A stretch of 64,000 bases of DNA, taken from NCBI GenBank assembly GCA_902511005.1, contig CABXDN010000001.1:106593-170592 (forward strand). The letters are read 5' to 3'. This stretch comes from an uncultured Candidatus Poseidoniales archaeon. GTDB lineage: Archaea > Thermoplasmatota > Poseidoniia > Poseidoniales > Thalassarchaeaceae. The notes under the pieces are model-generated. The model was not told the origin of the DNA, ran no database searches, and saw only the letters and a list, made by a program, of their open reading frames with translations. Positions 5,101 through 56,256 of the stretch are shown piece after piece. The position numbers and the translations under genes were made by a program. The number at the start of each line of letters is the position of its first letter. The stretch's first letter is position 1.

Positions 5101-5566
5101 TTATCCCTCCAACTAGGTAACCATTCTCATCTAATGCACTATGAGCAGAACTAGGAGTCCAAACAAAACTAGCTTTTAACGACTGAAAACCAGACAATAG
5201 CATACTGACATTGTATTCAGCAATAATGAATCCAATAGGATGCCAAATTTGCAGATACCCCTCTGCTGAAGCCGGCTGACCGGATGAACCTGCTTGAGTA
5301 TAAGTAACATTGATCTGGATTGTCTCATCTCTCATCACATATTCGACTATTGAACCATCAGGCTGAGTCCATTCACTCGCATCTCTAGTTTGGTTACCTA
5401 TCTCGATAGAGGTTATTTCAAAATCTATTAATGATTTAGGGCCGATGGCACTTTCGACACTACTTTCATCTAAATTTGAATTCATAGCCAGAGGAGATAA
5501 ACTCATTAGAAGCATAATTGATAACACAAAGATTGGAGATAGCATACGCATGATTAACAAATTCAT
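2102..5566 (-). CDS. Large cell-surface glycoprotein candidate (signal peptide, about 1000-aa ectodomain, C-terminal TM anchor, acidic/Pro-rich cytoplasmic tail); possible S-layer or adhesin protein
   Basis: The ORF runs to 5626, but its first codon there is TTG. I prefer the ATG at 5566 (MNLLIMRMLSPIFVLSIMLLMSLSPLA, signal-like), which is preceded by TAGGT. At least 11 N-x-S/T sequons are seen by eye. The TM helix ILFILVGLILLIAVLVATIRIM lies near the C-terminus. No family was recognised. Confidence 0.6.
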   Translation of the reverse strand: MNLLIMRMLSPIFVLSIMLLMSLSPLAMNSNLDESSVESAIGPKSLIDFEITSIEIGNQTRDASEWTQPDGSIVEYVMRDETIQINVTYTQAGSSGQPASAEGYLQIWHPIGFIIAEYNVSMLLSGFQSLKASFVWTPSSAHSALDENGYLVGGIILRGIVDGGLADDTESNNELDRYVPVAMWNDPMENGFCGDVDGDSIIDCTNQLQANVPTWVGAGYDSAGQLSNDPDSYGHWRMDDSLSAEGENHWRVSRPGANYASNRHDKLWWGWFTPFDNCNEPGHGLGNGGLDSAVSSNYGNNFCKIRLKGFDFLTLQLVTNAWGEMGAGDQVRLEAESGGQGEFFNFSSQQLSTTGDWSQLVWNMSEIHESAEYTLAFRFDSNSSFSSPGIQIDSFLLFAVEKVPEYTLDFDCNDPLPNSYLVVPSDPNPPSLYCRIKNNGYIDITLRLYTEVTNRSWMYDFPLRIDSNNQVDHDNYVISKVIPALEYMDTWFNLTIPDASGVQDLFWDVWVNDGVTNLSKEFVRLPVSVMPAYSCKLKQATLQNPAATLEPGASGVIPMTLKNTGNQVATWNFGASFPNIDWVDNAEIKWMYDGNEVSSLELELTDDIVIDAIITAPPQVPPGTYPVTLLASGMSPAQYLAEWQVNIVVPIFSDLTIEPEISNLVAPADDSLRLIEIRLINDGNSPESFDLSIQSDWKLGIEMNTEQTFEIDPFGGDSTVTMLLPMPYGIVNETYSVIITATSKTNSQYQKSAQILLTVPQTNLVEVEDLDMLEEVFRGGDDPRTVNWRIWNRGNVPDSFEISFDHFTDVSASAVGLNSGKTPYILPGDSYNLTVRYSFAATTFGDRTISMSATSVLSQNLGSVVSGTGDAVFQVGAQGWITLNPPAVLDINEKGKDIEVIFTVKNEHPTDAQLLRADIERDSNIFFNIIDARVETSDQNFVLEAQATRQITVYLTVTEDNLRNLDENIMNFQLYLEVDGDIDKVSKSASINMFKLDPIEEGPDTGAIAGLAGNILFILVGLILLIAVLVATIRIMRSASSPLEEISSFDDYEYTQNSSFNSDPLPGAPELPSADKVANSMYGGSKELFEQPPPPLPLEVVEKEEEFEEEVGVVEQIELPSGAPPIPEEGLPEGWSIEQWQHYGQAWIDQQNQE

Positions 5567-5695
5567 TCGGTACCTAATTCGTGTAAGAATGTTGGGGGTA
5601 AACGTGTCTAGAAAGAATTCCATCAATAATCCAATTGGAATCGAAAAATATATCGAAAAAACAACACATAATGATTGTGTTGTAATGAAGAACTT

Positions 5696-6811
5696 ATGCC
5701 CTTATGGTCTTGCGTAGGTAATATGGAGGGTAAAGCCAGTCTTTCACATAGACTCGGTTTAGGATTGATACTATTCATTCAGATAACTATAATCCCTGTA
5801 ATTGGATTCTCATTGACACACTTGATTCACTTCAATGAAGAAACCTATGCATTAACACCCCAATTAGAGTTAGTCCATTGGATAATTGTTTCTGGCCTTA
5901 CTTATGGAGTTGTTTGCTTACTTCTAGCCTTGGTAATAGGAGGTTATCGGCCTACTGCAATAGTCGAGCGAGGAGGATGGCTCCCCTCATTAGGGCTAAG
6001 TAGAAGAAAGTATGATCCAGAACTAATAGATAGAGCGAAAATGGCATCTTACTCGAGCCCTTATGGAAAAATGAGCCGTTTAGTTTCGGATAGAATTAGA
6101 AGCGATAAAAACGAATTGCTGGCAATTCATGGAGGCCTTCAGTTAATTGCTGTCCCATCACAAGTTCTTTTAATTTCAATCCCGATAATGATTATGGAAG
6201 GTATCCCTGAGAGCTTTATTAGAAAAGAAAGTGCGTTCGAATTAGGAATCATTGGGTATATTCTAGGATTATGGATTGCGTTCAGAATACAACCATTCGT
6301 CGCCCAACAATTAATAGGATTCGCAGCAAGATTTAGAAATATATTATGGAGAATTACAAAAATATCTTGGATTCTCCCTATAATCATATTATGGAGCATG
6401 GCAAGATTTACTCTCGACTTTTCAGTTGATGCATTAGGAGTTCAACTTACACAATGGCATAATGTACAATTAGAGGGTTTATTCTTAAGCTGGGTTTCCC
6501 CAAATGCAAATGTACCTAAAGGATCTTCGATTGATTCTGTTGTAGCCCTTTCAGTTTTACCAATGGCTGCTTTTACTACAATAAGCGTACTTGGAGGCTC
6601 TAATGGAATTCCTTCTTGGATGAAAAGTAAAGAAGATGAATTGGAAAATCTTTCGCAACAAAGTCTCCCAGAACCTAAAGAAATAGTAGATGAAAAAGAA
6701 AAAATAAGTGGAGATATCTTAATACCAGAAAATGAAATTAAAGCGGATTCACAACATGAGGATTATGAAGAAGAAAGAATGATTGATATTCCTGATTTAT
6801 TCAGATGGTAA
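5696..6811 (+). CDS. Hypothetical multi-pass membrane protein with acidic C-terminal tail
   Basis: Long ORF with several hydrophobic helices. The track start at 5675 is TTG; ATG candidates are at 5696 and 5723. No family was recognised. Confidence 0.5.
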   Translation: MPLWSCVGNMEGKASLSHRLGLGLILFIQITIIPVIGFSLTHLIHFNEETYALTPQLELVHWIIVSGLTYGVVCLLLALVIGGYRPTAIVERGGWLPSLGLSRRKYDPELIDRAKMASYSSPYGKMSRLVSDRIRSDKNELLAIHGGLQLIAVPSQVLLISIPIMIMEGIPESFIRKESAFELGIIGYILGLWIAFRIQPFVAQQLIGFAARFRNILWRITKISWILPIIILWSMARFTLDFSVDALGVQLTQWHNVQLEGLFLSWVSPNANVPKGSSIDSVVALSVLPMAAFTTISVLGGSNGIPSWMKSKEDELENLSQQSLPEPKEIVDEKEKISGDILIPENEIKADSQHEDYEEERMIDIPDLFRW

Positions 6812-15837: not shown

Positions 15838-16773
15838 ATGGAAATCACAGTCGTTGGTGCAGGAGTTTCTGGTTTGACCACAGGAATTAGGTTACTAGAA
15901 GAGGGTTGGGGAGTTAAGATAATGACTGAAGATGTAAGTCCAAATACTGTATCAGATGTTGCCGCAGCATGGTGGTATCCATTTCTTGTAGAGCCAATAG
16001 AGAAAACTAATAGATGGGCTTCAGAAACATTTGATGAATTACTCAGATTGAAGAATGTTGAGGGCGTCGAATGTATAACTTTGCGAAAAGGTAGAGAATA
16101 TCTTGACGAAATATGTGAACCACCGGGGTGGAGCCTTGGGCTCCCATATTTTAGAATCCTAGATGAAGATGAGATAGTTGGAGAATATAAATTCGGTTGG
16201 GAAATGGAAGCACCCGTTATTGAAATGAATTCTTACATGCCATGGTTATTAAATAAATTTAAAAAACTAGGGGGAACGTTAGAATTACAAAAATTTGATT
16301 CGATTAAAGATGTATCAGGAGACCTAATTGTGAATTGCTCAGGACTAGGAGCTAGAGAATTCTGCTCTGACGAAAAAGTAATACCAGTAAGAGGACAAGT
16401 AATCTATATCAAACAGGACCCAGGTTTTGGACGCTTCGATCAACAACCTGAAACACTGACTTACACTATACCAAGAAGAGATTTTACAGTACTAGGAGGA
16501 ACTGCACAAAAAGGCGATTGGGACGAAACAGTTCGGCATAAGGATACAGAGTATATTCTTTCGAAATGTGAAGCATTATGGCCGGAATTAGATCGAAACA
16601 AAATCATAGGCGTGGCTGTTGGTTTGAGGCCATCACGTGATGAACTTAGACTGGAAAAAGAAATCATTAGTAACAAAATTATAATTCATAATTATGGTCA
16701 TGGAGGTGCAGGAGTCACTCTATCTTGGGGTTGTGCTGATGAAGTAGTTAGATTATTAAAAATCAATACGTAG
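15838..16773 (+). CDS. FAD-dependent D-amino-acid oxidase (DAAO/DDO family)
   Basis: N-terminal dinucleotide fold VVGAGVSGLTTG, AAAWWYPF, and C-terminal HNYGHGGAGVTLSWGCA, which is typical of eukaryote-type DAAO. Confidence 0.8.
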   Translation: MEITVVGAGVSGLTTGIRLLEEGWGVKIMTEDVSPNTVSDVAAAWWYPFLVEPIEKTNRWASETFDELLRLKNVEGVECITLRKGREYLDEICEPPGWSLGLPYFRILDEDEIVGEYKFGWEMEAPVIEMNSYMPWLLNKFKKLGGTLELQKFDSIKDVSGDLIVNCSGLGAREFCSDEKVIPVRGQVIYIKQDPGFGRFDQQPETLTYTIPRRDFTVLGGTAQKGDWDETVRHKDTEYILSKCEALWPELDRNKIIGVAVGLRPSRDELRLEKEIISNKIIIHNYGHGGAGVTLSWGCADEVVRLLKINT

Positions 16774-17773
16774 ATTTTGTAGTTTTAACTATGGCTGAGG
16801 CAATCTTGTAAGGGTCCCCATTAGATGCAGGACGTCTGTCTTCAAGGCGTCCTTTCCAGCCATCTTCTACTGTTGTAATAGGGATTCTGATAGAAGCCCC
16901 TCTATCTGAAACTCCGTAAGAGAATTGATCAATAGATTGTGTTTCATGAAGGCCCGTAAGACGTAATTCATTATGAGCGCCGTAAACATCCATATGCCTC
17001 TTGATATTTTCGCCAAATGCTTTGCAAACTTTATGGAATACTGCTTCATCGCCACTATCACGTAATTTCGCATCTGAAAAATTGGCATGCATACCCGACC
17101 CATTCCAATCGCCCTTTATTGGTTTAGGATGATACTCGATATAATATCCATAATTTTCTGTTAGTCTGTCTAAAAGATATCGAGCAACCCATAATTCATC
17201 TCCAGCTGCTTTAGCCCCTTTAGCAAATAATTGAAATTCCCACTGACCACACGCAACTTCTTGATTGATTCCTTCGAAATTTATACCCGCTGCGATACAT
17301 AAATCAGCATGTTCTTCTACAAATGCTCGTCCATGTGTATTTTTACCTCCGACTGAGCAATAATAAAGTCCCTGAGGACCAGGATAACCGCCTAATGGGA
17401 AACCTAAAGGCAGTTGTGTTTCGACATCCATAATGAAATATTCTTGTTCAAAACCAAACCAAAAATCATTATCATCATCATCAATCGTCGCTCGACCATT
17501 AGATGCATGTGGTGTGGAATCGGGATTCAAGACCTCAGTCATAACCAGATATCCATTATCTCTCATTGGATCAGGAAATATTGCAACCGGCTTCAACAAA
17601 CAGTCTGACGAACCACCTTCTGCTTGCTTGGTAGAACTGCCATCGAAATTCCAAATAGGGCAATCTTCAAGTTTGCCCGAAAAATTATTTCTCACCATTG
17701 TTTTACTCCTCATATTCTGTGTAGGATTATATCCGTCTAGCCATATGTACTCTAATTTTGCTTTATCTGCCAT
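16763..17773 (-). CDS. glnA: Glutamine synthetase, type II (short eukaryote-like form)
   Basis: 336 aa. Motifs: EYIWLDG, FDGSSTKQAEGGSSDCLLKPVAIFPDP, FGFEQEYF, YYCSVG, NQEVACGQWEFQ, GSGMHANFS, ASIRIP, LEDRRPASNGDPY. Confidence 0.9.
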   Translation of the reverse strand: MADKAKLEYIWLDGYNPTQNMRSKTMVRNNFSGKLEDCPIWNFDGSSTKQAEGGSSDCLLKPVAIFPDPMRDNGYLVMTEVLNPDSTPHASNGRATIDDDDNDFWFGFEQEYFIMDVETQLPLGFPLGGYPGPQGLYYCSVGGKNTHGRAFVEEHADLCIAAGINFEGINQEVACGQWEFQLFAKGAKAAGDELWVARYLLDRLTENYGYYIEYHPKPIKGDWNGSGMHANFSDAKLRDSGDEAVFHKVCKAFGENIKRHMDVYGAHNELRLTGLHETQSIDQFSYGVSDRGASIRIPITTVEDGWKGRLEDRRPASNGDPYKIASAIVKTTKSTY

Positions 17774-17976: not shown

Positions 17977-18330
17977 TTAATTCATATCTAAACCAGTTAA
18001 ATCGACATCAAACCATTGGTCATAATATTGTTTCTGGAGCATTATGACATAACCTAATATTACTCCAAATAAAATCCATGAAGGGACAGTTCTACCTAAA
18101 CGAATTGGGATTTCAGTTAATATTAGCCCATCAAATAGTATACAAAAAATAAGGTACAATGGACGTCCTAATGTGACTTTCCAACTTTCAAACTGTTGAC
18201 CAACTATAGATTGAACTCTTTTGTGCCTCCTTAAATCGGATGCCTTTTTAATTCTCCAAAGGGACTCTTCTTGCTGAGATTTCTTATCTATAAAATCAAC
18301 TGAATTAGATGTCTCTTCGGGACCCTCCAT
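17977..18330 (-). CDS. Hypothetical small membrane protein
   Basis: The ORF extends to an ATG at 18480, but that would overlap the OppF-like gene by 62 nt. An internal ATG at 18330 (MEGPEETSNS..) avoids the overlap. There are two C-terminal TM helices. The start is uncertain. Confidence 0.4.
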   Translation of the reverse strand: MEGPEETSNSVDFIDKKSQQEESLWRIKKASDLRRHKRVQSIVGQQFESWKVTLGRPLYLIFCILFDGLILTEIPIRLGRTVPSWILFGVILGYVIMLQKQYYDQWFDVDLTGLDMN

Positions 18331-18418
18331 GCCATGGCGGGATGGTTTGAAGCCATAGACTAATCTAGGAGTAAATTTCAATCTGCTTTGTACACAGAGA
18401 TATTTAATTCTAATCTTT

Positions 18419-19480
18419 TTAGGGCTCTTGATCAGAGGCGTTAGTTGAAGACTGGGGGTGAATACCATCTGGAATGCCATTGTTAATCAAAGGTAATTTT
18501 TCACCGGGAGCCAAGGGGAAATGACATGCTACTTTATGTCCCGAATCAATATTCACTAATTCTGGTTCATCTACATCACAAACGCCGATCTTGGCTATTG
18601 GGCACCTTGTATGGAAACGACATCCAGAAGGCGGATCTGCAGGACTCGGAACATCTCCGCTTAGAACTATCCTTTCATTTCTATCTTGACCAACTGTTGG
18701 TTCAGGGATAGCCGAAAGAAGAGCATGAGTATAGGGATGAGCAGGGCTTTCAAATAAATTATCAGTTTCGGCTAGTTCGACTATCTTTCCAAGATACATG
18801 ACCGCAACTCTATCTGAAATATGATGCACTACATTCAAAGAATGGGTTATGAAAACAAATGTTAGACCTCTTTCTCTCTGGATCTCATCTAATAAATTTA
18901 GCACTTGGGCCTGAACTGAAACATCTAATGCGCTAGTTGGTTCATCTAGAAGGATGAATTCTGGTTCAAGTGCTAGAGCCCTAGCTAAAGCAACTCTCTG
19001 TTTTTGACCACCTGAGAATTCATGAGGGAATCTAGTCATATGATTCCTCTTCAAACCAACGGATTCTAATAAATCACCTACTTTTTTAGTCATTTCAGCA
19101 CCATCAGAATAACCATTGACGATCAAAGGTTCTGAAATTATTGATCTGACGGTCATACGGGGATTCATTGAACCGCCGGGATCTTGGAAAACTATTTGCA
19201 TTTTTCTCCTAATATCTTTATTTTTCATTTTTCTTAATTCAACACCATCATAAATTATTGAACCTGATGTAATTGGTATGAGGCTTAAAATAAGTCTACC
19301 AAGTGTAGTTTTTCCGCAACCAGACTCTCCAACAATACCCAATGTTTCTCCTTTATCTACAACAAGACTTACTCCATCAACTGCATGGACAAAATTCTTC
19401 ACAGGAGATAATAAACCAGACTTGATAGGAAACCATTTTTTGACTTCATTTAGTTCGATTAAAGTTTCCCTATCTGACAA
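18419..19480 (-). CDS. Oligopeptide/dipeptide ABC transporter ATP-binding protein (OppF/DppF-like)
   Basis: Walker A GESGCGKTT, signature FSGGQKQRVALARAL, Walker B ILLDEPTSALD, and a C-terminal oligopeptide-type extension with PSGCRFHTRCP. TTG start. Confidence 0.9.
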   Translation of the reverse strand: MSDRETLIELNEVKKWFPIKSGLLSPVKNFVHAVDGVSLVVDKGETLGIVGESGCGKTTLGRLILSLIPITSGSIIYDGVELRKMKNKDIRRKMQIVFQDPGGSMNPRMTVRSIISEPLIVNGYSDGAEMTKKVGDLLESVGLKRNHMTRFPHEFSGGQKQRVALARALALEPEFILLDEPTSALDVSVQAQVLNLLDEIQRERGLTFVFITHSLNVVHHISDRVAVMYLGKIVELAETDNLFESPAHPYTHALLSAIPEPTVGQDRNERIVLSGDVPSPADPPSGCRFHTRCPIAKIGVCDVDEPELVNIDSGHKVACHFPLAPGEKLPLINNGIPDGIHPQSSTNASDQEP

Positions 19481-21425
19481 TTACCTCACCTCCCACGCCT
19501 TCGAATTCCTTAGAAAATATATCAAAAGAAGACTCTACATCTTTAGAAATGATAGTTAAATCAGTATGATGGCAAGCAGCATAATGCCCTTCGCTAACTT
19601 CAATCATTTCTGGCCTAATTGAGCGACAGAGATCGTCTGCAAATGGACATCTTGGATGGAAACGGCAACCGTCAAAGTGAGTATTTGGATCTGGAACTTG
19701 ACCAGGAATTATCGGGAGACTTGTGCGCCCCTCGCGTTCATCCGAGTGTACAATCTTGGGTATACTATGTAGAAGTCCGATTGTATATGGCATCCTTGGA
19801 TTTGCAAGTATGTCTTCAATAGTTCCTGTCTCAACAACTGATCCCGCATACATCACTGATACCGAGTCGCATAATTCAGCTATAACTCCAAGGTCATGAG
19901 TAATCAGCATTATCGAAGTGCCCTTTCTATCTCGAAGATCACGCATTAAGTGAAGAATTTGAGCCTGTATCGTGACATCAAGTGCAGTAGTTGGTTCATC
20001 TGCAATCAGTAATTTGGGCTCACAGGACATCATCATAGCAATCATAACTCTTTGACGCATCCCTCCAGATAACTCATGAGGATACATTGTAATAACCGCC
20101 CCAGGATTAGGTATCTGGACATCTTCAAGAATCTTTACTACTTGTCCTCTATGAGCAGGGTCAAGTTGTAAGTAATCAATCAATATCATACCTGGTATCG
20201 ATATTACCATCACCAAAGCAACGATGGTTCCAACGACCTGATTAGGAGTCCACAGAAGTATTGCATAAGTTAGTGCTAGAGTAAATGTAAAAGGTATTGA
20301 TCTAATTATCAAAAATCTATGAACTTCTTCAAGCCTAGAGAAATCAACAAAGAGTGATGAAATGATAGGGAAATAGAAAGCAATCATAAACGCCGAATGG
20401 ACCCAATTGTTGTCAGAAATTTCTAATTCTTCATGCCATAAATCACCCAAAAAAAGACTACTATCATACCATAGAATGAATAATAATATGACAGATACAT
20501 ATGGAATTGACACCAACATCTTTCTGAAGTCTTCTTTTCTATCCATCGAGGATTTTATTGAGGCTCTTAGTATACCAAAAGGAATCAATAAAAAGCAATA
20601 AGAAATTAATTCATCCGTATAATTAGTGCATGATATTGATACCTCGGCAGAAGCGTAGAATATTACGGCAAACCGAGTCCCCCATGAAGAAATTAGGTTT
20701 GGTCCCATACATGAAGTTATAAGATAAGTTAATAGAAGAATTGAGAAAAATATTGATGAAAAACGATCAGATAAAATCCAATTATACATAAATCTAAATG
20801 GGGACTTTAATGAAGAAAAAATTCTATCATATTGAGATAATCTAGAGTCTACTAAACGGTTATGGGTCTTCATAACCTCATAAATCTGCTTTTCAACTGT
20901 ATATAGAGGGTTTAACGCAGTCATTGGCTCTTGGAAAATCATACTTATTTCATTACCTCTAATATATCTCATAAATTTCTCATGTTCTCTTAAATCGGAG
21001 TAAATAAGATATTTGATAATAAGAGAAATAATAATCAATCCAAAGCCTAACATTATTATTTGGAAACCTAGTAGTGGATCATTCATAAAAGGCATTAGAT
21101 AAACAAAACCTACAGGGAAGAAAATTAAAACTGCGATGTAGGGTAATATGTTACTAAGAAATACAAGAGAATTATTTTTATCACTTTCATGAAAAATCAT
21201 TTCCTTACCATCATACTTGATACTTCCTTCATCAACGATACAAGTGGCTAATCCAATACTGGTCAATGAGGTAACCGACTTACCACATCCTGATTCTCCT
21301 ACGACACCCATTATTTGACCCTTTTTAACTTCAAGATTTACATCATGTAAAGCCTCAACTGGGCCTTCAAGTGTGTCGAAATGGACTTTGAGATTTTGAA
21401 TTTTTAATAACGAATTTTCAGACAC
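19470..21425 (-). CDS. OppD/DppD-like ABC ATPase with two large hydrophobic insertions inside the nucleotide-binding domain
   Basis: 651 aa, versus about 330 aa as I recall for the family. Motifs: Walker A GESGCGKSV, Q-loop region ISMIFQEPMTALNP, signature YPHELSGGMRQRVMIAMM, Walker B LLIADEPTTALD, ITHDLGV, CRFHPRCP. Insertions lie at about aa 79-150 and 191-425. GTG start. Confidence 0.85.
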   Translation of the reverse strand: MSENSLLKIQNLKVHFDTLEGPVEALHDVNLEVKKGQIMGVVGESGCGKSVTSLTSIGLATCIVDEGSIKYDGKEMIFHESDKNNSLVFLSNILPYIAVLIFFPVGFVYLMPFMNDPLLGFQIIMLGFGLIIISLIIKYLIYSDLREHEKFMRYIRGNEISMIFQEPMTALNPLYTVEKQIYEVMKTHNRLVDSRLSQYDRIFSSLKSPFRFMYNWILSDRFSSIFFSILLLTYLITSCMGPNLISSWGTRFAVIFYASAEVSISCTNYTDELISYCFLLIPFGILRASIKSSMDRKEDFRKMLVSIPYVSVILLFILWYDSSLFLGDLWHEELEISDNNWVHSAFMIAFYFPIISSLFVDFSRLEEVHRFLIIRSIPFTFTLALTYAILLWTPNQVVGTIVALVMVISIPGMILIDYLQLDPAHRGQVVKILEDVQIPNPGAVITMYPHELSGGMRQRVMIAMMMSCEPKLLIADEPTTALDVTIQAQILHLMRDLRDRKGTSIMLITHDLGVIAELCDSVSVMYAGSVVETGTIEDILANPRMPYTIGLLHSIPKIVHSDEREGRTSLPIIPGQVPDPNTHFDGCRFHPRCPFADDLCRSIRPEMIEVSEGHYAACHHTDLTIISKDVESSFDIFSKEFEGVGGEVIVR

Positions 21426-21429
21426 AAAA

Positions 21430-23340
21430 TCACCTCTTATTTTTCGGATCTACTATATCTCTTAATCCATCTCCGAGCAAATTGAAACCAAGAGTTGTGA
21501 GTAAAATCGCCAAACCAGGGAATGTCACTAACCACCAGGAATTGGGGAAGAATCTACGGCCATCAGAAACCAGAATACCCCATTCTGCAGTCCCCGGTTC
21601 AGCACCGAGGCCTATGAAAGATAAACCAGATGCAGATAATATTGTACCACCTACATCAAGTGTAAAAGCAACCAACAACGGGGCCCAAGCACTCGGTAAT
21701 ATATGCCTGAACATTATTCTTCCATCAGGGGCTCCCACAGATTTTGCTGCCTCTACAAATGTCATCTCTCTGATGTACAAGACTTGACCTCGGATCAGTC
21801 TTGCATAACCAGGCCAACCAGTTAATATTAATGCAGCCTGAATTTTCCATAATCTATCAAAATCCTTAATCAGAATAAAATCGGAATCACTGGATTTAGT
21901 TACAAAAATTAACAAAACGACTGAAATGAATATCAGAATCGTCCTTAATGCTAAGAATCGATAAGGATTCCCAAAATCAAATGATTCAGAGATTCTCTTT
22001 GAAATCAATTCACTAGGTACACCTTCATTTAATGTTTTATCCAAGATTGTTATTACCACATATAGGGTGAAAATCGCAACTAAAGTTAATGATTTAACTA
22101 ACTTCGCGTCAGTATTATTTGACCATAATTCTGGCCAAAAACTCCCTAAGAAAATTAATGTTAAACCTACTAATAAAACTCCTCTGAAGCGCAATAAAAA
22201 TAACGCGATTTCAAGTATTGAGTTTTTGAAATTAAAAACTTTATTTTCTAAATCAGACTGTGACGCCAATTTATTTTTTATTTTAAACATTAAATTTCGA
22301 TCGGTTCCTTCTCCTGTAATTAATTCAGAAATTACGTTTCTTGTAGAAAGAATATTAAAAAATAACAATAAAAATGCTGCGGTGGACATCGCGATTGTTA
22401 GGCTTGTAGTATTCTGTAATGCAGCGACAAAAGCCATTGCTAAAATCAAGCCAGGCACTGCAAAGAATACATCAGTAATTCGCATGATTACTTCGTCAAT
22501 AACTCCGCCATAATACCCACTTATGCTTCCAACAATTGTACCCAATGCAACAGTTAAGAACGCAACGGTAATACCTATTTTTAGTGAAATACGGGAACCA
22601 TATAATATCTTACTAAACAAATCTTGCCCGGTATTTGTGGTACCCATAATACATACATCATAACCATCAGGTAACCACCAATGATGCATGTCATTATTCT
22701 GAAATTCATAAGTCACCCATATTTTTGAACTAGTAATGTTTAACGCTTCGTCCGTCACAAAAAATGTAGTTTCATTATAGACTATTATCAAAGAATTATT
22801 CAAATCATAACCTAAATCATCTTCGATAAATTCAATCTCAATAATTTCTAGAGGTATTGGTGTAAGAGATCCGTTTTCATCAATCACTGGATCTGAAACA
22901 GCAGGTACATAACGAGAATACCCTTTGGTTTTTATTCCAAATAAATCAATCCCTTGCTCATGCCAATCGCATGCCTCCGAGAATGGAGCTTCTCTTCTTG
23001 GTTCGTTATCAATCCACCAAAGATCTTCTGTATCTTGCAAATTCCTGTAAGGATGTTCGACTGCAATATCATCTGCAAAAATACTGATAGTTGAAACTGT
23101 AACTATAAGAGTTAAACCGATTATAGCAAGTATTGATTTCCTAAAAATTTTCCAACTTTTCTTTAAGTCATAAAATCTTTGTTTCCAGCCTTGGATGAAT
23201 CGTGTGAATCCCTCCTCACGATCTTCAAGGCTTTCTGTCCACTTTTTACCTCTTATTTTATCAAAAATAATCCCAATAGTAAAAATTAAGAAAAATAAAT
23301 ATACGCTATACAAAATGAAATCAGTGGTGAAATCACTCAT
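21430..23340 (-). CDS. OppC/DppC-like ABC permease with an extra N-terminal TM, an enlarged extracellular loop and a roughly 190-aa hydrophobic internal insertion
   Basis: 636 aa. Conserved blocks GTTNTGQDLFSKILYGSRISL, ITDVFFAVPGLILAMAF, WPGYARLIRGQ, VEAAKSVGAPDGRIMFRHILP (EAA loop), and LGDGLRD at the C-terminus. Confidence 0.85.
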   Translation of the reverse strand: MSDFTTDFILYSVYLFFLIFTIGIIFDKIRGKKWTESLEDREEGFTRFIQGWKQRFYDLKKSWKIFRKSILAIIGLTLIVTVSTISIFADDIAVEHPYRNLQDTEDLWWIDNEPRREAPFSEACDWHEQGIDLFGIKTKGYSRYVPAVSDPVIDENGSLTPIPLEIIEIEFIEDDLGYDLNNSLIIVYNETTFFVTDEALNITSSKIWVTYEFQNNDMHHWWLPDGYDVCIMGTTNTGQDLFSKILYGSRISLKIGITVAFLTVALGTIVGSISGYYGGVIDEVIMRITDVFFAVPGLILAMAFVAALQNTTSLTIAMSTAAFLLLFFNILSTRNVISELITGEGTDRNLMFKIKNKLASQSDLENKVFNFKNSILEIALFLLRFRGVLLVGLTLIFLGSFWPELWSNNTDAKLVKSLTLVAIFTLYVVITILDKTLNEGVPSELISKRISESFDFGNPYRFLALRTILIFISVVLLIFVTKSSDSDFILIKDFDRLWKIQAALILTGWPGYARLIRGQVLYIREMTFVEAAKSVGAPDGRIMFRHILPSAWAPLLVAFTLDVGGTILSASGLSFIGLGAEPGTAEWGILVSDGRRFFPNSWWLVTFPGLAILLTTLGFNLLGDGLRDIVDPKNKR

Positions 23341-24473
23341 TCTAATCGCACCCTTGGATCGACTATAGCATATGAAATATCTACAAGTAAATTAGAGAGG
23401 AGGAAAATTATAGCTGTAACTAAAGTAACCCCCATTATCATTGAAAAATCTAAGTAAACAATAGCATCGACAGCTGTTTTACCCATACCTGGGAATGCAA
23501 ATATGGTTTCTGTAAGAACAGCGCCTCCTATGGCACCCCCTATAGAGAATCCTAGAATCGTAACTATTGGCACCAAAGCATTACGTACAGCATGGACTAG
23601 AATGACTCTAGTTTCAGAAATTCCTTTAGCTCGAGCGGTTCTAACATAATCTTCATTCATCACCTCTAAAAGGCTGGCTCTCATATATCTTAGAAGTCCT
23701 CCAGTACTCGCCACTGCTAGTGTGAAACAGGGTAAGAATAGATGCTTTAAAGTATCCATAAACATATCCATGTGAGACATTGAAACTTCGTAACGATTTG
23801 TCTGAGGATTGAATTTCGTTGGCTCATCTACAATCCAACTATCGATTAAGTGGAACCCTGTCCCTGTATCTGGGAATGTATAGGTAGGATCATGTCTCCC
23901 GTATATAGGAAAACAACCACCTTCAGTATCAGGAACCAAAGGTAAAGCCTGAGTTATTGGATCGCATATACCAACTTGAGTTCCGAGAATATATTGGAAC
24001 ATCATGGCTAACCAAAATATGGGTAAACTAACAAATGCAATCGCAACAAATCTAGATGCCTGGTCGAATAGTTTGTCTTGCCATACTGCGCTAAAAATTC
24101 CTAAAGTGATGCCCATGGGAAATCCCATTGCTAGAGATAAAAAAGACATCTCAAGAGTGATAGGAGCAGCGTCTCTGAGCTTCTCAATTACTGGACGATG
24201 GAATGTAACTGATTCACCCCAGTCACCCTCAAGAAGATTTGTAACATATATGACATATTGCTGCCATACTGGTTTATCAAGACCCAATCTTATGACATTA
24301 GATTCGTAGGCAGTTAGTCCATTGGAGCCAACTACTCCACATTTTTCACCACATAAGGCGGCTGCAGGGTCGGCAGGTATAATCTGGGCTATAGCGAATG
24401 TGAATATTGAAACTCCCATGATTACAGGGATTAAGAGGATTAATCTTCTGACAATAAATTCTTGTAGCTTCAT
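23337..24473 (-). CDS. OppB/DppB-like ABC permease
   Basis: N-terminus FIVRRLILLIPVIMGVSIFTFAI, EAA loop YVRTARAKGISETRVILVHAVRNALVP, C-terminus DISYAIVDPRVRLE. The track start at 24479 is TTG; an ATG lies at 24473. Confidence 0.9.
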   Translation of the reverse strand: MKLQEFIVRRLILLIPVIMGVSIFTFAIAQIIPADPAAALCGEKCGVVGSNGLTAYESNVIRLGLDKPVWQQYVIYVTNLLEGDWGESVTFHRPVIEKLRDAAPITLEMSFLSLAMGFPMGITLGIFSAVWQDKLFDQASRFVAIAFVSLPIFWLAMMFQYILGTQVGICDPITQALPLVPDTEGGCFPIYGRHDPTYTFPDTGTGFHLIDSWIVDEPTKFNPQTNRYEVSMSHMDMFMDTLKHLFLPCFTLAVASTGGLLRYMRASLLEVMNEDYVRTARAKGISETRVILVHAVRNALVPIVTILGFSIGGAIGGAVLTETIFAFPGMGKTAVDAIVYLDFSMIMGVTLVTAIIFLLSNLLVDISYAIVDPRVRLE

Positions 24474-24554
24474 AGACAAATCCCCCCTAAATTAGGTTGA
24501 AATATTGGTTTAAAAAACCAATTTATAATTCTCAAAATAATCATTTAGAGAATC

Positions 24555-24602
24555 AAAAAAAAAACGGCTCGATAACAGCCACCGTAGTGACTGTTATCGG
24601 CC
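24555..24602 (-). terminator. Hairpin plus U10 tract between the substrate-binding-protein gene and the permease genes (intrinsic terminator/attenuator-like)
   Basis: The 9-bp perfect arms cgataacag (24570..24578) and ctgttatcg (24591..24599) are extended by GGC/GCC with one bulge. On the transcribed (minus) strand the hairpin is followed by ten Ts (24564..24555). Confidence 0.5.
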
Positions 24603-24631
24603 TTACGTATTTCCGAACTAGTCAATAAGAC

Positions 24632-26662
24632 TCAAGCTACTGGTAACTTATCGTAGTCAAACCAGTGAGCAGAGCCTATAGCTGCCCATGGAGCGGATAC
24701 GATATCAGTACGCTTTACGCTAATACCATTACCTTGGCCGATGATTATCATGTTCGGGTCTTCCGTCCAAAGAGCGAACGCATTACTGTACAGTTGTGTA
24801 CGCTCTGCATCGTCTGTTGAAACACGAGCTGCTGTTAGATTCTCATCTAGAGCCGCATTGTGGTAATTTGTACCATATGCGTCTCCTCCAGCATCGTGAC
24901 TTGCAGCGAATGGAGTCCAGTAGTTATCTGGGTCCAGATAATCTGGAGCCCATCCACTGAATCTGATCTCGAATGTACTAGTGTAGTACATTGTTAGATA
25001 CTCAGCCCAAGGCTTTGCATCACCATCAGTTGCAACGCCGATTGAACCTAATGACTGTGCAATTTGACCAGCCATAGCAATACGGTAATCGTTACCTTCG
25101 TTAGCCATGATTCTCAGAATGTTTGGTAGGCGACATTCGTCACCATCTCTATCTCCCTCAGCAACTACAGTTGGTGCACCTGCAACAGTTAGACTTGAAC
25201 AGTCATATTGCTTAATGAATCCTGCATCTTCAAGAGTTTGCTCAGCAATGGTTAGATCGTAGCTGAATACCTGTGATTGAGTCTCATCATACAAGAAACC
25301 ATTAGGAATTGGGCCGTATACTGGAGCTAATTGTCCGCTGTATGTATCACGGCGTGCTGTATCATAATCGAAAGCATATGCAATGGCCTTACGAACTGCA
25401 GATTGTGACATTACGTTACAATCCATTGTACCATCCATATCACAGTCATGATTTAGAACTAGAGACGAGTTAGCATCAGTGTTGTTGCTTTCTTCACCAG
25501 CATCTAGAGCCTTTGGCATAACATTCATTGCAGATAGAGTAATTGTGAAAGATTCTCTGTATGTACAAACGAATCCTTCCTTACCTACTACATTAGGTCC
25601 ATCTTCATAATTGTCACAGAACTCTGGCTCATCCTCGATGTTTAATGAACCGAAATCAGCCTCACCATCTTGGAAAGCAAGAAGACGAGTTGAAGCTTCA
25701 GTAACTATTTGTGAAGTGAAACGGTTGATATTGAATCCACCATCTTCCCAGTACATCCAGTTAGGTGTCAGAACGATTGAAGTCTCACGAGTCCATGAAT
25801 CAACAATGTAAGCACCGGTACCTGCACCAAGAGGTGCTTCGTCCATCCATCCATGACACCAGTCATCAGATGACTCGTCTACATCAGCAGTTGCAGGATC
25901 ATCAGCAGTAACTATTCTATTGGCTTCACAAAGGTCTTTGTTTACAATAGCACCAACAGTGTAAGCGATTGTAGAAATGAATCCAGCATATGGTTGCATC
26001 AAAGTTACCGAAAAGTGAGTATCATCAATCATTGTCAGACCTGACGTGTTAAAATTTTGTTCAGTAATCCAAGAAACGTGTGAAAGTGGGCTTGCCATTT
26101 CATTCACTCTTTCCCATGAATATACAACATCTTCAGCAGTCATATGGTCACCATTACTGAAGTATACATCATCACGTAGAGTGAATGTGTAAGTCAGTTG
26201 GTCATCACTAATTGTGTGACCAGTAGCTAAACGTGGTACGATAATCGCATTTCCTGAGCCATCTCCTTCATACCTGTATAGGGTATCGAAAACATTCTCA
26301 ATAACGTCACCAGATGCTGAATCATAAGCATCATGAGGGTCAAACGTAGATGCATCACCGATTGTCATTTCAACAATCTCGCATGGGTTGTTTGATCCTG
26401 TCTCAGCACAAGCACGTATGCTCTGCAGAGATGACCAAGCGTCATCATATGCCATAGTATCTGCCGCATATGATTCCATTACGGAAGTCATAGTTGGGTC
26501 GTAGGTACAAGACATGTCGTCTACTGTGGCGTCAGCGTTGTAGTTGTTAGCGGTTGCATCCATGCAACCATCTACATCGTCTTCGCCACCGAGACACCCG
26601 GCAAATACCGAGGCAATCATCAGCGTGCATAAAAATAGAGCACTAAATCTAGGCTTCATCAT
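24632..26662 (-). CDS. Family-5 (OppA/DppA-type) peptide-binding lipoprotein of the ABC importer
   Basis: 676 aa. Signal plus lipobox-like LMIASVFAGC. The overall length and its position at the head of the oppBCDF-like genes fit this family. Confidence 0.8.
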   Translation of the reverse strand: MMKPRFSALFLCTLMIASVFAGCLGGEDDVDGCMDATANNYNADATVDDMSCTYDPTMTSVMESYAADTMAYDDAWSSLQSIRACAETGSNNPCEIVEMTIGDASTFDPHDAYDSASGDVIENVFDTLYRYEGDGSGNAIIVPRLATGHTISDDQLTYTFTLRDDVYFSNGDHMTAEDVVYSWERVNEMASPLSHVSWITEQNFNTSGLTMIDDTHFSVTLMQPYAGFISTIAYTVGAIVNKDLCEANRIVTADDPATADVDESSDDWCHGWMDEAPLGAGTGAYIVDSWTRETSIVLTPNWMYWEDGGFNINRFTSQIVTEASTRLLAFQDGEADFGSLNIEDEPEFCDNYEDGPNVVGKEGFVCTYRESFTITLSAMNVMPKALDAGEESNNTDANSSLVLNHDCDMDGTMDCNVMSQSAVRKAIAYAFDYDTARRDTYSGQLAPVYGPIPNGFLYDETQSQVFSYDLTIAEQTLEDAGFIKQYDCSSLTVAGAPTVVAEGDRDGDECRLPNILRIMANEGNDYRIAMAGQIAQSLGSIGVATDGDAKPWAEYLTMYYTSTFEIRFSGWAPDYLDPDNYWTPFAASHDAGGDAYGTNYHNAALDENLTAARVSTDDAERTQLYSNAFALWTEDPNMIIIGQGNGISVKRTDIVSAPWAAIGSAHWFDYDKLPVA

Positions 26663-26878
26663 CTGATGCGGTCAATATAGCATATATAGACTGATTGGAT
26701 AATGCTCAAAGAATAACTATTTTCTACAGTTTTTCGTTAATTCTATCAGTCAAGCGTTTTTTCCCAATATTAACTGATAATACTAAAAAATAACAAAAAT
26801 TCTAATTTTTAAAAATAATAAAAAAATAGAAACAAATTAATATCTCTATTTTTTATTAAAAATAATGGTAAAAAATAA

Positions 26879-26955
26879 TGGTGGACGAGCCGAGATTTGA
26901 ACTCGGGGCCTCTTCTTAGCCAAAGAAGCGCGCTTCCAAGCTGCGCCACACGCCC
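26879..26955 (-). tRNA. trnA: tRNA-Ala (anticodon GGC), CCA encoded
   Basis: Hand-folded. Acceptor GGGCGTG/CTCGTCC with the G3:U70 alanine identity pair (one U6-U67 mismatch). D arm GCGC-AGCTTGGAA-GCGC. Anticodon arm CTTCT-TTGGCTA-AGAAG. T arm CCGAG-TTCAAAT-CTCGG. TTAAAT (26981..26986) lies about 26 nt upstream, and T-rich tracts follow downstream. Confidence 0.85.
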
Positions 26956-27008
26956 TATGAACAGGCGACCTGCGACGGTCATTTAAGGAGAATGGATTAG
27001 GCAAGGAT

Positions 27009-27575
27009 ATGACAGGAGACAGCGGGCAGGGAGAGAAAATAGTCAACCTACCAGAAAAGCCATGGCTCCCTGAAGGATTAATAGACGAACTTAACTCTAG
27101 ATTAACAAAAAATGAAGCGCCTTTCTTGAAGTATCTTGGAAAAAACTTACAACTTATTTGGATTGATAAAAATGAGTCAAGATTGGGGATGACTAGGTTT
27201 GAATGTAATGCGAATGAACTTTTTCGTAGAAGAAAACTTAGAGTTTCTTGTGGACCAGTGACTGTAGGCCTGAATCCATTATTAAACAATGATTCAGAAT
27301 TATATCTGCATACGCTAGTACACGAGTTATTACATGCATCTGGATTATTAGATCATGGAAGTATACATTCGGATTTAGCCAAGTTAATCGCACCACCCCC
27401 TAAACTATCAGATTCGCCTGTGTTACAAGAAATGCGTGAGAGAGTTTTAGATAAATTACCTGAAAGACAGTGGATATGCGGAGATTGTGGATATACATGG
27501 GAGAGGAAAAGAGTGACTATGCCTAGTAGATGCCCTAAATGCGCCATGCCTTTCAGATCACAAGAGTCGCAATGA
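27009..27575 (+). CDS. Putative zinc metalloprotease (HExxH; SprT/WLM-like) with C-terminal zinc ribbon
   Basis: HTLVHELLH contains HExxH. The C-terminus has CGDCG-x16-CPKC. Confidence 0.5.
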   Translation: MTGDSGQGEKIVNLPEKPWLPEGLIDELNSRLTKNEAPFLKYLGKNLQLIWIDKNESRLGMTRFECNANELFRRRKLRVSCGPVTVGLNPLLNNDSELYLHTLVHELLHASGLLDHGSIHSDLAKLIAPPPKLSDSPVLQEMRERVLDKLPERQWICGDCGYTWERKRVTMPSRCPKCAMPFRSQESQ

Positions 27576-28420: not shown

Positions 28421-28497
28421 GGGCGATTGGTGTAGTCTGGATATCATATCGGCCTTCTAAGCCGATGACATGGGTTCGAATCCTGTATCGCCCACCA
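28421..28497 (+). tRNA. trnR: tRNA-Arg (anticodon TCT), CCA encoded
   Basis: Perfect 7-bp acceptor GGGCGAT/ATCGCCC. Anticodon arm TCGGC-CTTCTAA-GCCGA. T arm ATGGG-TTCGAAT-CCTGT (two G-U pairs). Discriminator A, then CCA. Confidence 0.85.
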
Positions 28498-54641: not shown

Positions 54642-56255
54642 TCACATGATCTCTTTATTTCTAAAAATTGACTGCCCTATAGCAATCATTCCTATACTAA
54701 TTGATAACATTATTACTACACTTATTATCAATGCAACAAAAGGATTTCCTGTTTCTAAAGTATGAACAGGCGGGTGCCAGAAAAATGAGATTCCGGTCTC
54801 CAAGCCGAATGCATCCGCTTTTTGTTGAATTAGAGATGTGTCACTCCAAGATATCATGACTACAGCATCAATTATCTGAATTGCCCAGTGAGAAACAGAA
54901 AGCATTGTAATACTAGCATTAGGAATAGTGATTGTAAATAAACCCATTAAAAATTCCCATATGCCGTAAAGAATACAGATATAGACGCCGTATTTTGGCA
55001 TCACTAAGCCAACTGTATTGAAAATAGATCCATACGCAGTTAATACTAGAATTGTCGCGAGAGCAATGCCCATCCATACAGGATAATCAGATAATCTCAC
55101 TATAGAATCTCCAGGCCCTATCAGAGAAGTAATTAGAGCAACAATCAAAATAAGCATCACTGTATACGATACTACAATACCAAGATAACCCAGTAACCGA
55201 TAGAGAATAAATTCCCCTCTGTGAATAGGCTTAGAAAGCAAGTAGTGTAAAGTACCATTTTCAGATTCATCCCTAACAAGTCCTAAAGCCAAAAATAAAG
55301 GTAGGAAAAGGCCTAGAATCATTACAAAGGCGATTTTACCAGTACCAATAATGAAAGTCCTATGACTTGACTCGCCTATATGTTCAGAATCATCTGGATC
55401 TTCATCAACATTATTATCAGCTCGAATTGAAACTAAATTACCATTCTGATCATAAATCCATTCGACATCACAACTTATTCCATTTCTGTTACTATCATTT
55501 GGAGAATTATCTTCAGTCTGGTACTCATCTTTCAGACAATCTCCATCATCATCTATACCATTTATTGGATCTTCATCAATATACATTGATTTCGGATGTT
55601 TCTCAACAAAAAATGACTCGGTCATATAGCCCCATTCTGCAGACCAACCTGGTTCAACTGAGATTTCACCTTCTCCTGCGAAACTTGCTCCAAATACCAC
55701 ATAGGTACCATTTTCTAGAGCACAATAACTTGGCGACTGGAAATAAGTCCAGTCATCAAAAGGGCTACCATCAGGACAATCTATTCCTCGGCTGCCCCAA
55801 TCTATCCAATTATAGTAACTAAACGGACTTTCTGCCTCTTCATCAATCCAAGTGGGGGTGAAATATCCTGTAGCATAGAGCCATGTATGATTCCCGTAAT
55901 GAGTTCTTGGTTGGTCATTATAATCAATATCACCAAGGTACACGTATTCTGATGAACCGGGGTAATTATTGGTATCATAATCGCTAGTCCCATAAATCAT
56001 TTCTTGACCTAATGGATACCCATCATTATCCCAATCTTCACTATCACCATCATTATCTATTGGTTCAAAATTTGCTCTTATAGAATCTATATAAAATGCA
56101 AGTAATAGAGATATCAATAATACACCTACACCCAATACTACCCAAGTTGATATTCGATTACGCAGTTGACGTATAGTCAACTCTGTTATAGCACCGGCTT
56201 TCCTATCTAATTGAGTCCAAACTGTTTCTGAGAGTTTTCGGCCCTGATCATCCAT
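54642..56255 (-). CDS. ABC-2-type permease with a roughly 270-aa Asp-rich (Ca-binding-like) extracellular domain
   Basis: One N-terminal TM helix. Exodomain with DNDGDSEDWDNDGYP, DDDGDCLKDE and NNVDEDPDD. About six C-terminal TM helices. ATG at 56255 is preceded by GGAGG with an 8-nt spacer; the track TTG is at 56270. Confidence 0.6.
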   Translation of the reverse strand: MDDQGRKLSETVWTQLDRKAGAITELTIRQLRNRISTWVVLGVGVLLISLLLAFYIDSIRANFEPIDNDGDSEDWDNDGYPLGQEMIYGTSDYDTNNYPGSSEYVYLGDIDYNDQPRTHYGNHTWLYATGYFTPTWIDEEAESPFSYYNWIDWGSRGIDCPDGSPFDDWTYFQSPSYCALENGTYVVFGASFAGEGEISVEPGWSAEWGYMTESFFVEKHPKSMYIDEDPINGIDDDGDCLKDEYQTEDNSPNDSNRNGISCDVEWIYDQNGNLVSIRADNNVDEDPDDSEHIGESSHRTFIIGTGKIAFVMILGLFLPLFLALGLVRDESENGTLHYLLSKPIHRGEFILYRLLGYLGIVVSYTVMLILIVALITSLIGPGDSIVRLSDYPVWMGIALATILVLTAYGSIFNTVGLVMPKYGVYICILYGIWEFLMGLFTITIPNASITMLSVSHWAIQIIDAVVMISWSDTSLIQQKADAFGLETGISFFWHPPVHTLETGNPFVALIISVVIMLSISIGMIAIGQSIFRNKEIM

Positions 56256-56256
56256 A

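Follow-up and report, generated by a model that had tools for sequence, protein, structure and literature searches.

Predicted transmembrane helices inside an ATPase and a permease of an Opp/Dpp-type ABC importer of Marine Group II archaea

The 64,000-nucleotide stretch of an uncultured Candidatus Poseidoniales archaeon analysed here (contig CABXDN010000001.1, positions 106,593 to 170,592 of the forward strand; below, the window) encodes an ATP-binding cassette (ABC) importer in which the OppD-like ATPase and the OppC-like permease are both interrupted by long hydrophobic inserts. Judged by its sequence, the system is a type I ABC importer of the PepT (Opp/Dpp) family of Marine Group II (MGII, Poseidoniales), and a variant rather than an ordinary member of that family. 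The PepT-family importer is the known part; what is new is the presence of predicted transmembrane (TM) helices inside the nucleotide-binding domain (NBD) fold of an Opp/Dpp importer. The interrupted architecture and the membrane character of the inserts are observed and are conserved throughout the family, and our results suggest that the inserts may form an accessory membrane module. The genes and the features within them, in operon order, are the following.

24632..26662, minus strand: substrate-binding protein (SBP), 676 amino acids (aa), SBP_bac_5 (Pfam PF00496, E=4e-61), first gene of the conserved operon
23337..24479, minus strand: OppB-like permease, 380 aa (Pfam BPD_transp_1 and BPD_transp_1_N; PDB alignment)
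21430..23340, minus strand: OppC-like permease, 636 aa (Pfam BPD_transp_1 in two stretches; PDB alignment, hydropathy and AlphaFold2 (AF2) model)
23263..23319, minus strand: extra N-terminal TM helix predicted in OppC, aa 8-26 (Kyte-Doolittle (KD) value 2.51)
22678..23031, minus strand: predicted extracellular domain of OppC, aa 104-221, in the TM1-TM2 loop (a gap in the PDB alignment)
21838..22413, minus strand: predicted four-helix TM insert of OppC, aa 310-501, in the extracellular TM3-TM4 loop
19470..21425, minus strand: OppD-like ATPase, 651 aa (Pfam ABC_tran in two stretches and oligo_HPY; PDB alignments)
20973..21194, minus strand: first OppD insert (Ins1), a two-helix hydrophobic hairpin, aa 78-151, in the beta-subdomain loop between Walker A and Q-loop
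20157..20846, minus strand: second OppD insert (Ins2), an amphipathic helix followed by six hydrophobic helices, aa 194-423, in the helical subdomain
19572..19667, minus strand: four-Cys motif C587, C593, C600 and C618 of the OppD oligo_HPY domain, corresponding to the [4Fe-4S] site of DppD/OppD
18419..19480, minus strand: OppF-like ATPase, 353 aa (Pfam ABC_tran in a single stretch and oligo_HPY)
17977..18330, minus strand: small open reading frame (ORF) with two predicted TM helices, 117 aa from an internal Met; homologous ORFs lie 3' of OppF in relatives

The catalytic motifs of OppD are complete, namely Walker A (GESGCGKS), Q165 of the Q-loop, the signature LSGGMRQR, Walker B with E477 and H510 of the H-loop, and all five are invariant columns in our alignments A1 and A2. 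That the catalytic machinery is intact and strongly constrained suggests a working importer. The original prediction, made by a model from the sequence alone, held that two hydrophobic segments interrupt this ATPase, and alignment to solved structures places them at aa 78-151 and 194-423, with two and six hydrophobic helices respectively. The coordinates and sizes of the ORFs and the motifs that it gave agree with the ORF list, and its insert nucleotide positions follow from a correct conversion of residues to nucleotides. At Ins1, OppD aa 77 and 152 correspond to residues 76 and 83 of Mycobacterium tuberculosis (Mtb) OppD, so that about 68 residues are extra; the insert ends just before the helix leading into the Q-loop (in an ungapped alignment E. 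coli DppD 80-120 matches window OppD 149-189), and AF2 places helices at 85-110 and 117-158 with a predicted local distance difference test score (pLDDT) of 65-84. At Ins2, OppD aa 193 and 424 correspond to residues 124 and 127 of Mtb OppD, with about 228 extra residues, and the insert begins 7-10 residues past E183, the equivalent of E. coli DppD E114. Its hydrophobic helices lie at about 221-240, 272-290, 301-320, 340-362, 376-392 and 397-418. Altogether OppD has about 300 extra residues and eight hydrophobic helices in the window protein, with six to eight across the family.

In the C-terminal domain the four Cys form a putative [4Fe-4S] site. They are invariant in A1 and A2, align to the Mtb OppD C-terminus and have four matching Cys in OppF; the cluster ligands of E. 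coli DppD (C284/C290/C297/C315) have the identical spacing, 6, 7 and 18 residues apart (PMC12136057). One insert-bearing OppD relative, the 356-aa fragment P0259, has a divergent C-terminus past GCRF (GCRFCQRMNRQGD...), with a Cys pattern unlike the usual four-Cys motif.

For OppC the original prediction had described a hydrophobic insertion of about 190 aa, an enlarged outer loop and an extra N-terminal TM helix. The PDB alignment bears out the first two, an insertion at aa 310-501 with four helices and an outer domain of about 110 aa. OppC aa 309 and 502 flank the TM insert and correspond to residues 158 and 166 of E. coli DppC (about 185 extra aa), while aa 103 and 222 flank the outer domain and correspond to DppC 63 and 71 (about 110 extra aa). 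The inserted helices are at about 313-333, 376-400, 412-433 and 462-482, appear in the AF2 model as four long helices (pLDDT 60-82) and are accompanied by the conserved motifs NP(W/Y)R(Y/F)L..RT and DFDRLWKIQ, of which the latter is nearly invariant and lies on the outer face ahead of OppC TM4. The outer domain is beta-rich (AF2 strands, pLDDT ~84), with the conserved stem motif HPYRNLQDTEDLW..EPRR..PF.E.CDWHEQ; conservation of the stem is 0.86. An invariant Cys pair of the TM1-TM2 outer loop, C124 and C230, could form a disulfide. The N-terminal TM helix is present in the window protein, as predicted, but is restricted to the window's own clade, its columns having ~73% gaps in the 50-sequence alignment A3. 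The predicted TM count of OppC is thus 11 (six canonical, four inserted and one N-terminal), or ten in the other clade; hydropathy analysis detects ten hydrophobic segments, plus the weakly hydrophobic canonical TM4. In the AF2 monomer of OppC (pLDDT 66.5) helices and an extracellular beta domain are seen, and a Foldseek search of this model against PDB finds DppC/OppC only, with no match for the inserts and no other transporter-like fold.

From hydropathy, helix parity, the positive-inside rule and the helices modelled by AF2, we conclude that the inserts are membrane-spanning. In a Kyte-Doolittle analysis of 19-mers with a threshold of 1.5-1.6, Ins1 has two segments (KD 2.28 and 2.58), Ins2 six (1.59-2.56) and the OppC insert four (1.96-2.83), while OppF has none. 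On the Hessa biological scale, used for comparison, the inserted helices match or exceed the canonical permease helices of this complex in hydrophobicity. The segment counts are even, six in most of 50 OppD homologues and eight in the window OppD, as they should be because both ends of an insert must lie on the same side of the membrane. In the topology that this implies both OppD inserts would begin and end in the cytoplasm, and the loops of the OppD inserts have 13 Lys and Arg residues inside versus one outside (means over the 50 homologues, 12.7 versus 1.1). The OppC insert has the same positive-inside tendency, less clean, and AF2 predicts helices throughout the inserts. On this evidence an accessory membrane module, as the original prediction had suggested, is the best description of the inserted segments.

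The interrupted architecture is conserved. More than 100 independent contigs (JGI, ENA, NCBI, Tara and Logan assemblies) encode proteins 98-100% identical to the window OppD, a recurrence that speaks against the assembly chimera considered in the original prediction. The best 120 OppD homologues are all enlarged (538-662 aa), four truncated fragments aside, as are the best 120 OppC homologues (579-690 aa), and neither these two sets nor the 86 loci examined include an insert-free version. Apart from the window, the loci comprise five full ones obtained by exact protein look-up (a sixth, L003, is a duplicate of L002) and 80 from a metagenome scan with the conserved Ins2 end, the query being the alignment of the TM-E/F junction of one clade. 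Spacings were measured between invariant anchor motifs, and the canonical OppD figures were counted from the E. coli DppD sequence. From Walker A to Q-loop the distance is 113-118 aa in 80 of the 80 loci with anchors, compared with about 50 in the canonical protein, and 78 of them have two hydrophobic segments there. From the Q-loop to LSGGMRQR it is 189-295 aa in all measurable loci, versus about 58, and from TM3 to TM4 of OppC 183-212 aa in each of the 63 loci with both genes readable, versus about 23. In those same 63 loci the OppC and OppD inserts co-occur without exception, the metagenome loci among them being selected on OppD Ins2 and blind to OppC inserts without OppD inserts. In the orthologues found here, of the kind that the original prediction proposed to look for, the inserts are conserved and occur together in OppC and OppD.

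The architecture is common to two deep clades, in which hydrophobicity, even helix number and charge bias are kept at about 20% identity between inserts. The minimal OppD form has 2+4 hydrophobic segments and the window's clade 2+6. Two members of the window's clade, P0052 and P0053 (577 aa; alignments A1/A2), are without the central hairpin of Ins2 (TM-C/TM-D) and keep the rest; the middle of the bundle is therefore dispensable. In terms of pairwise column identity, the junction-proximal helices of the inserts are the best conserved (0.46-0.60) and the central ones the least (0.22-0.31). The source names attached to these proteins are Poseidoniales, Poseidoniia, Thalassarchaeaceae, Thalassarchaeum, marine group II or the unspecific Euryarchaeota/archaeon, a taxonomic range that rests on names carried by a minority of database entries. 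In the databases they are annotated plainly as 'oligopeptide/dipeptide ABC transporter ATP-binding protein', and the architecture is unremarked.

Selection on the inserts was estimated as the ratio of nonsynonymous to synonymous substitution rates (dN/dS). The closest relative whose DNA was compared is locus L084, at a synonymous rate (dS) of about 0.9-1.2; for L085 and L086 dS is near saturation, so only the L084 ratios are reliable. Compared with L084, dN/dS in OppD is 0.04 for the core, 0.145 for Ins1 and 0.255 for Ins2, and in OppC 0.015 for the core, 0.058 for the outer domain and 0.175 for the TM insert. Over all comparisons the ranges are 0.20-0.26 for Ins2, about 0.18-0.21 for the OppC TM insert, 0.05-0.06 for the outer domain and 0.03-0.04 for the OppD core. 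These ratios indicate purifying selection on the inserts that is relaxed five- to tenfold relative to the cores. The GC content falls to 0.29-0.32 over the inserts, compared with 0.40-0.45 in the flanking coding sequence, while GC at third codon positions (GC3) is 0.22-0.27 in the inserts and 0.30 in the cores. The low GC of the inserts is an effect of amino-acid composition, because GC3 is about the same in inserts and cores. A foreign origin of the inserts, which the low GC might have indicated, was rejected on the unchanged GC3.

An Ins2 profile searched against 1.84 billion cluster representatives gives 13 matches only; eight of the 13 were read and are OppD-type proteins or truncated fragments with NBD motifs, and the other five match at the OppD insert position (~aa 190). 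No free-standing homologue and no other membrane-protein family is found for Ins2 among these representatives, in a search that covered Ins2 and not Ins1 or the OppC insert separately. Pfam finds nothing significant in the excised inserts, and in hhalign comparisons of Ins1, Ins2, the OppC insert and the small ORF with each other and with themselves all probabilities are below 3%, which indicates no shared origin and no internal repeat. The suggestion in the original prediction that the inserts might be a fused partner protein is thus not supported: the Ins2 profile finds OppD-type proteins only, Pfam is blank and hhalign sees no relation between inserts and small ORF. An intein or other self-removing insertion was also considered and rejected, the best Pfam match of the excised inserts being a domain of unknown function at E=0.012 and the inserts being hydrophobic helices under purifying selection.

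In a contig scan with the full OppD alignment, whose other matches are mostly bacterial OppD+OppF gene pairs and uninformative, we found locus L005 in a metagenome-assembled genome of an uncultured Thermoplasmatota archaeon (contig JAVRLJ010000001.1), with OppD (454 aa) and OppF (428 aa) at 3543-4907 and 4917-6203. Both insertion sites of the window OppD are occupied in the L005 OppD too, one following the strand of the beta-subdomain and the other separating helix one from helix two of the helical subdomain. What is inserted there differs: the segments are shorter (~30 and ~120 aa), hydrophilic and rich in charge, and no hydrophobic segment is among them. The L005 OppC is a normal six-TM protein of 302 aa, and OppF is enlarged along with OppD, in its case by a long insertion within the C-terminal Cys-motif domain. 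The two loops of OppD are therefore permissive insertion sites, and the hydrophobic inserts of MGII may have evolved from hydrophilic precursors like those of L005.

OppF and OppB are close to standard size, as the original prediction had said. OppF is canonical and uninterrupted in all 86 loci examined, with 104 aa between Walker A and signature wherever the anchors are found. With OppD enlarged and OppF canonical throughout, the complex would be asymmetric, again as originally proposed. OppB is a near-canonical six-TM permease in which one outer loop has about 33 aa more than in DppB, and it aligns without gaps to 8z1v_A over residues 197-336.

The small ORF has two hydrophobic helices and is 117 aa long in the window and 117-124 aa in both deep clades. 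The mechanical ORF list gives it 167 aa, but its relatives begin at the internal Met. It carries the motif W(R/K)(I/L)KxAS(D/E)...TLGR...DG..L.E.P...G.T..W...LQ..Y..WF.VD and lies 3' of OppF in 57 of the 86 loci, the contig in the others usually ending soon past OppF. In relatives it is found at 9696-10070 of L001, 7798-8172 of L002 and 10014-10367 of L084, also in L085 and L086, and in 51 of the 80 metagenome loci. The small ORF is under purifying selection (dN/dS 0.12-0.18), has no Pfam match and has ten homologous cluster matches (117-163 aa) without a taxon name. It is a plausible candidate for a sixth subunit.

The genes for the SBP, OppB, OppC, OppD, OppF and the small ORF form a tightly packed minus-strand operon at 17977-26662 (ORF list and Pfam). 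The SBP has a signal-peptide-like N-terminus followed by a Cys in a lipobox-like FAGC, and its gene is in every full-length related locus. PF00528 is found in OppB and OppC and PF19300 in OppB, while the match of OppC to OppC_N (PF12911) is sub-threshold, at 19.6 bits versus a cut-off of 23.9; both ATPases have PF00005 and PF08352. The top PDB matches are Mtb OppABCD and E. coli DppBCDF/OppBCDF, with DppB for OppB and DppC for OppC, and the EAA coupling region of the permease has a conservation of 0.91. The system thus has the family 5 (cluster C) SBP, the B- and C-type permeases, the two ABC_tran+oligo_HPY ATPases and the four Cys ligands of the PepT family. Its machinery would be that of any type I importer, with a binding protein attached by a lipid, a channel of OppB and OppC, and OppD and OppF as a dimer of ATPases. 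It departs from the family in the soluble contiguous NBD, which OppF has and OppD has not, and in the six-TM permease, which OppB is and OppC is not. The substrate is presumably oligopeptides or dipeptides, going by family membership only; in MGII genome papers the system is called an oligopeptide transporter (10.1101/349548).

Next to the operon lie genes of nitrogen assimilation. Those of the window's clade are a glutamine-synthetase-like gene and a DAO oxidase (window 16763-17773, minus strand, and 15838-16773, plus strand), and those of the other deep clade a major facilitator superfamily (MFS) transporter and glutamate synthase subunits; the regions compared were those downstream in L084-L086 and L001/L002. 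Just upstream of the operon are tRNA-Ala(GGC) at 26879-26955 (minus strand) and tRNA-Arg(TCT) at 28421-28497 (plus strand); an ORF of 147 aa at 26846-27289, which overlaps this tRNA-Ala, is probably spurious. Elsewhere in the window, at 54642-59200 (minus strand), there are two consecutive ABC-2-type exporter pairs, one with an ATPase of 331 aa and a permease of 337 aa and the other with an ATPase of 313 aa and a permease of 542 aa. The two ABC-2-type ATPases (58205-59200 and 56257-57198) have uninterrupted domains and serve as an internal control.

How the enlarged OppD might sit in the complex can be judged from solved relatives. In E. coli DppBCDF, residues T100, S101, N103 and E114 of DppD meet D235, T239, K243, H254 and N258 of DppB, and E114 makes a salt bridge to K243 of the DppB coupling helix (PMC12136057). 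The window OppD has T169, A170, N172 and E183 at the DppD positions, of which T169, N172 and E183 are identical, and all five DppB residues are unchanged in the window OppB (D277, T281, K285, H296 and N300). OppD therefore presumably docks on OppB as usual. In that arrangement Ins2 would emerge on the side of the helical subdomain that faces the membrane, two to three helical turns away from the contact with the coupling helix, and Ins1 would emerge from the beta-subdomain, which in Mtb DppABCD has a loop that extends to TMH1 of DppB (PMC10954201). The explanation that we favour, at about an even chance, is a lineage-specific accessory membrane module that anchors OppD beside OppB. Its parts would be the 2-TM hairpin and the 4- to 6-TM bundle in the OppD NBD and the 4-TM bundle in the OppC TM3-TM4 loop, and the small 2-TM protein encoded 3' of OppF would probably belong to it. 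As both inserts depart from the NBD at loops that face the membrane, close to the docking site of the coupling helix, OppD would be permanently threaded into the bilayer beside a partner permease, most likely OppB, and the module would have the structural role of tethering OppD to the permeases and bracing the complex. The conserved junction helices may pack on the core, with the variable helices peripheral; the variable centre and the loss of the central hairpin in P0052 fit such a core packed on the host subunit and a variable periphery. Being part of the mobile helical subdomain, which turns when ATP binds, Ins2 may also restrain or transmit the movements that link ATP binding with gating.

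Several points weigh against an anchoring module. The topology is based on our own hydropathy and charge counts rather than on a trained predictor. The AF2 monomer of OppD, from a 50-sequence alignment, has a mean pLDDT of 43 and is usable for secondary structure and the Ins1 hairpin only, and the OppC model has low TM-scores to real structures (Foldseek). The positions where the inserted helices pack are inferred. If OppD docks on OppB as in E. coli, the OppD bundle and the OppC insert would start on different halves of the transporter, and direct contact would leave their co-occurrence unexplained. The four-Cys domain, a stabiliser of Opp/Dpp complexes elsewhere, is retained, and an extra tether is not obviously needed. 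The relaxed constraint on the central helices fits a passive spacer equally well. The constant company of an insert in OppC, the partner of OppF, with the insert in OppD fits no reading well.

The inserts could instead be a signalling or gating device, a possible but doubtful explanation. Docking of loaded SBP would be sensed by the outer loops of the OppD bundle, the OppC insert and the OppC extracellular domain and signalled straight across the membrane to the OppD helical subdomain, and the module would control ATP binding at that site instead of only anchoring the subunit. Such a device would be well placed, as Ins2 is part of the helical subdomain, whose rotation accompanies ATP binding, and is next to E183, the residue that meets the coupling helix. 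Before DppA docks, E. coli DppBCDF takes up ATP analogues at DppF and not at DppD, hence the D subunit is the regulated site (PMC12136057). The strongly conserved OppC extracellular domain, with its low dN/dS and its stem, was gained together with the TM insert, and the nearly invariant DFDRLWKIQ is on the outer face before TM4. Against such a device, the OppD bundle has short outer loops (4-11 aa) in most homologues, with weak conservation except for W392-x-P394, and the longer acidic outer loop of the window OppD is absent from most relatives (gap fraction 0.55). Contact with the SBP is, moreover, itself inferred. In a broader form, on which we place similarly little confidence, the inserted helices of OppD and OppC and the small protein would make up a second membrane domain that links the OppD helical subdomain across the membrane, relaying SBP docking or the state of the membrane to the nucleotide site and bypassing the coupling helix. 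Such a route of coupling, if real, would be one that no ABC transporter is known to have.

It seems unlikely that the inserts are hydrophobic expansions of near-neutral effect, tolerated at permissive loops and entrenched in the lineage with no specific benefit. In favour of this, the two OppD loops tolerate insertion, as the hydrophilic inserts of the Thermoplasmatota relative L005 show, the inserts have five to ten times the dN/dS of the cores, and the length of Ins2 varies widely, as the spacing from Q-loop to signature shows. Yet dN/dS is still 0.15-0.26 rather than near 1, hydrophobicity, helix parity and charge bias have survived in both deep clades in spite of the low insert identity, and no insert-free version turned up among the loci or the top homologues of either protein. 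Membrane insertion of an ATPase domain would also be costly and is unlikely to be neutral.

It is improbable that the 10-12 extra helices of OppC and OppD, with two from the small protein, form a second functional unit such as a channel, a secondary-transport-like pathway or a lipid-handling site. The inserted helices are without the conserved polar or charged residues expected of a pore or binding site, their invariant positions being occupied chiefly by Pro, Leu, Trp and Ser; the central helices show little conservation and can be lost (P0052), and Foldseek finds no transporter-like fold beyond DppC/OppC. These points outweigh the number of added helices (12-14), which equal or outnumber the canonical core (12), the strict co-occurrence of the three components and the absence of homology to any known family, by which no function is excludable. 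An artefact, whether misassembly, a frameshifted gene call or an intein or mobile element in the genes, can be dismissed as far as sequence data go, since the one sign of it, the drop in GC over the inserts, is an effect of amino-acid composition by the equal GC3, while the ORFs are continuous, near-identical proteins recur on independent contigs of several projects, two deep clades share the architecture, the excised inserts have no significant Pfam match and hence no Hint/intein or endonuclease domain, and the inserts are under purifying selection.

Proteins and peptides are the presumed diet of Marine Group II archaea, which are among the most abundant archaea of the surface ocean. An oligopeptide transporter is reported in most MGII genomes and is the only peptide ABC system in MGIIa (Tully, 10.1101/349548). 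A helical subdomain threaded through the membrane would be a natural experiment on the motion required of this subdomain and on the coupling between ATPase and channel. Multimer modelling and heterologous expression for cryo-electron microscopy are feasible, because the family is small and clearly delimited and metagenomes sample it richly. The observations that would speak against the original prediction did not arise: the hydropathy scan predicts TM helices in the inserts, the alignment to the solved structures that matched finds no equally long inserts in studied OppD or OppC, and the recurrence among contigs gives no sign of misassembly.

The NBD is the most conserved part of ABC transporters and, to our knowledge, always soluble; we know of no transmembrane insertion inside an NBD. 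Inserts like these are in none of the solved Opp/Dpp or other ABC structures that matched OppB, OppC or OppD, and we found no description of them in the full-text literature, with most subscription journals outside its coverage. In both respects the original view that no characterised Opp/Dpp system is alike has held. The closest systems, E. coli DppBCDF/OppBCDF and Mtb OppABCD/DppABCD (PDB 8z1v, 8z21, 8j5q and 8wd9), share with the window system the subunit set, gene order, ATPase motifs, four-Cys motif and DppB-DppD interface residues. Unlike it, they have soluble and contiguous ATPases and six-TM permeases, whereas here OppD has six to eight extra predicted TM helices, OppC has four (or five) and an extracellular domain, and a small 2-TM gene is appended to the operon.

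Large modules within an ABC fold are known from SMC/Rad50 and UvrA-type ABC ATPases, in which they lie between the Walker A/Q-loop half and the signature/Walker B half and the ATPase is still functional, which shows that this part of the fold can accommodate large insertions. In contrast to the inserts described here, those are soluble coiled coils or zinc- or DNA-binding modules of DNA-repair proteins, and there is no sequence relationship. The P2 loop of MalF in the E. coli maltose importer is a large extra-cytoplasmic domain in an outer loop of a type I permease which contacts the SBP, and the beta-rich TM1-TM2 loop domain of OppC is analogous to it in principle; MalF, however, belongs to a different permease family, has its domain in a different loop and without an accompanying TM insert, and works with an unchanged ATPase. 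Half-transporters (ABC exporters, MacB) resemble OppD in having TM helices and an NBD in one polypeptide. In these the transmembrane domain is N- or C-terminal to an intact NBD, whereas in the MGII importer the predicted TM helices interrupt the NBD twice and are additional to complete separate permeases.

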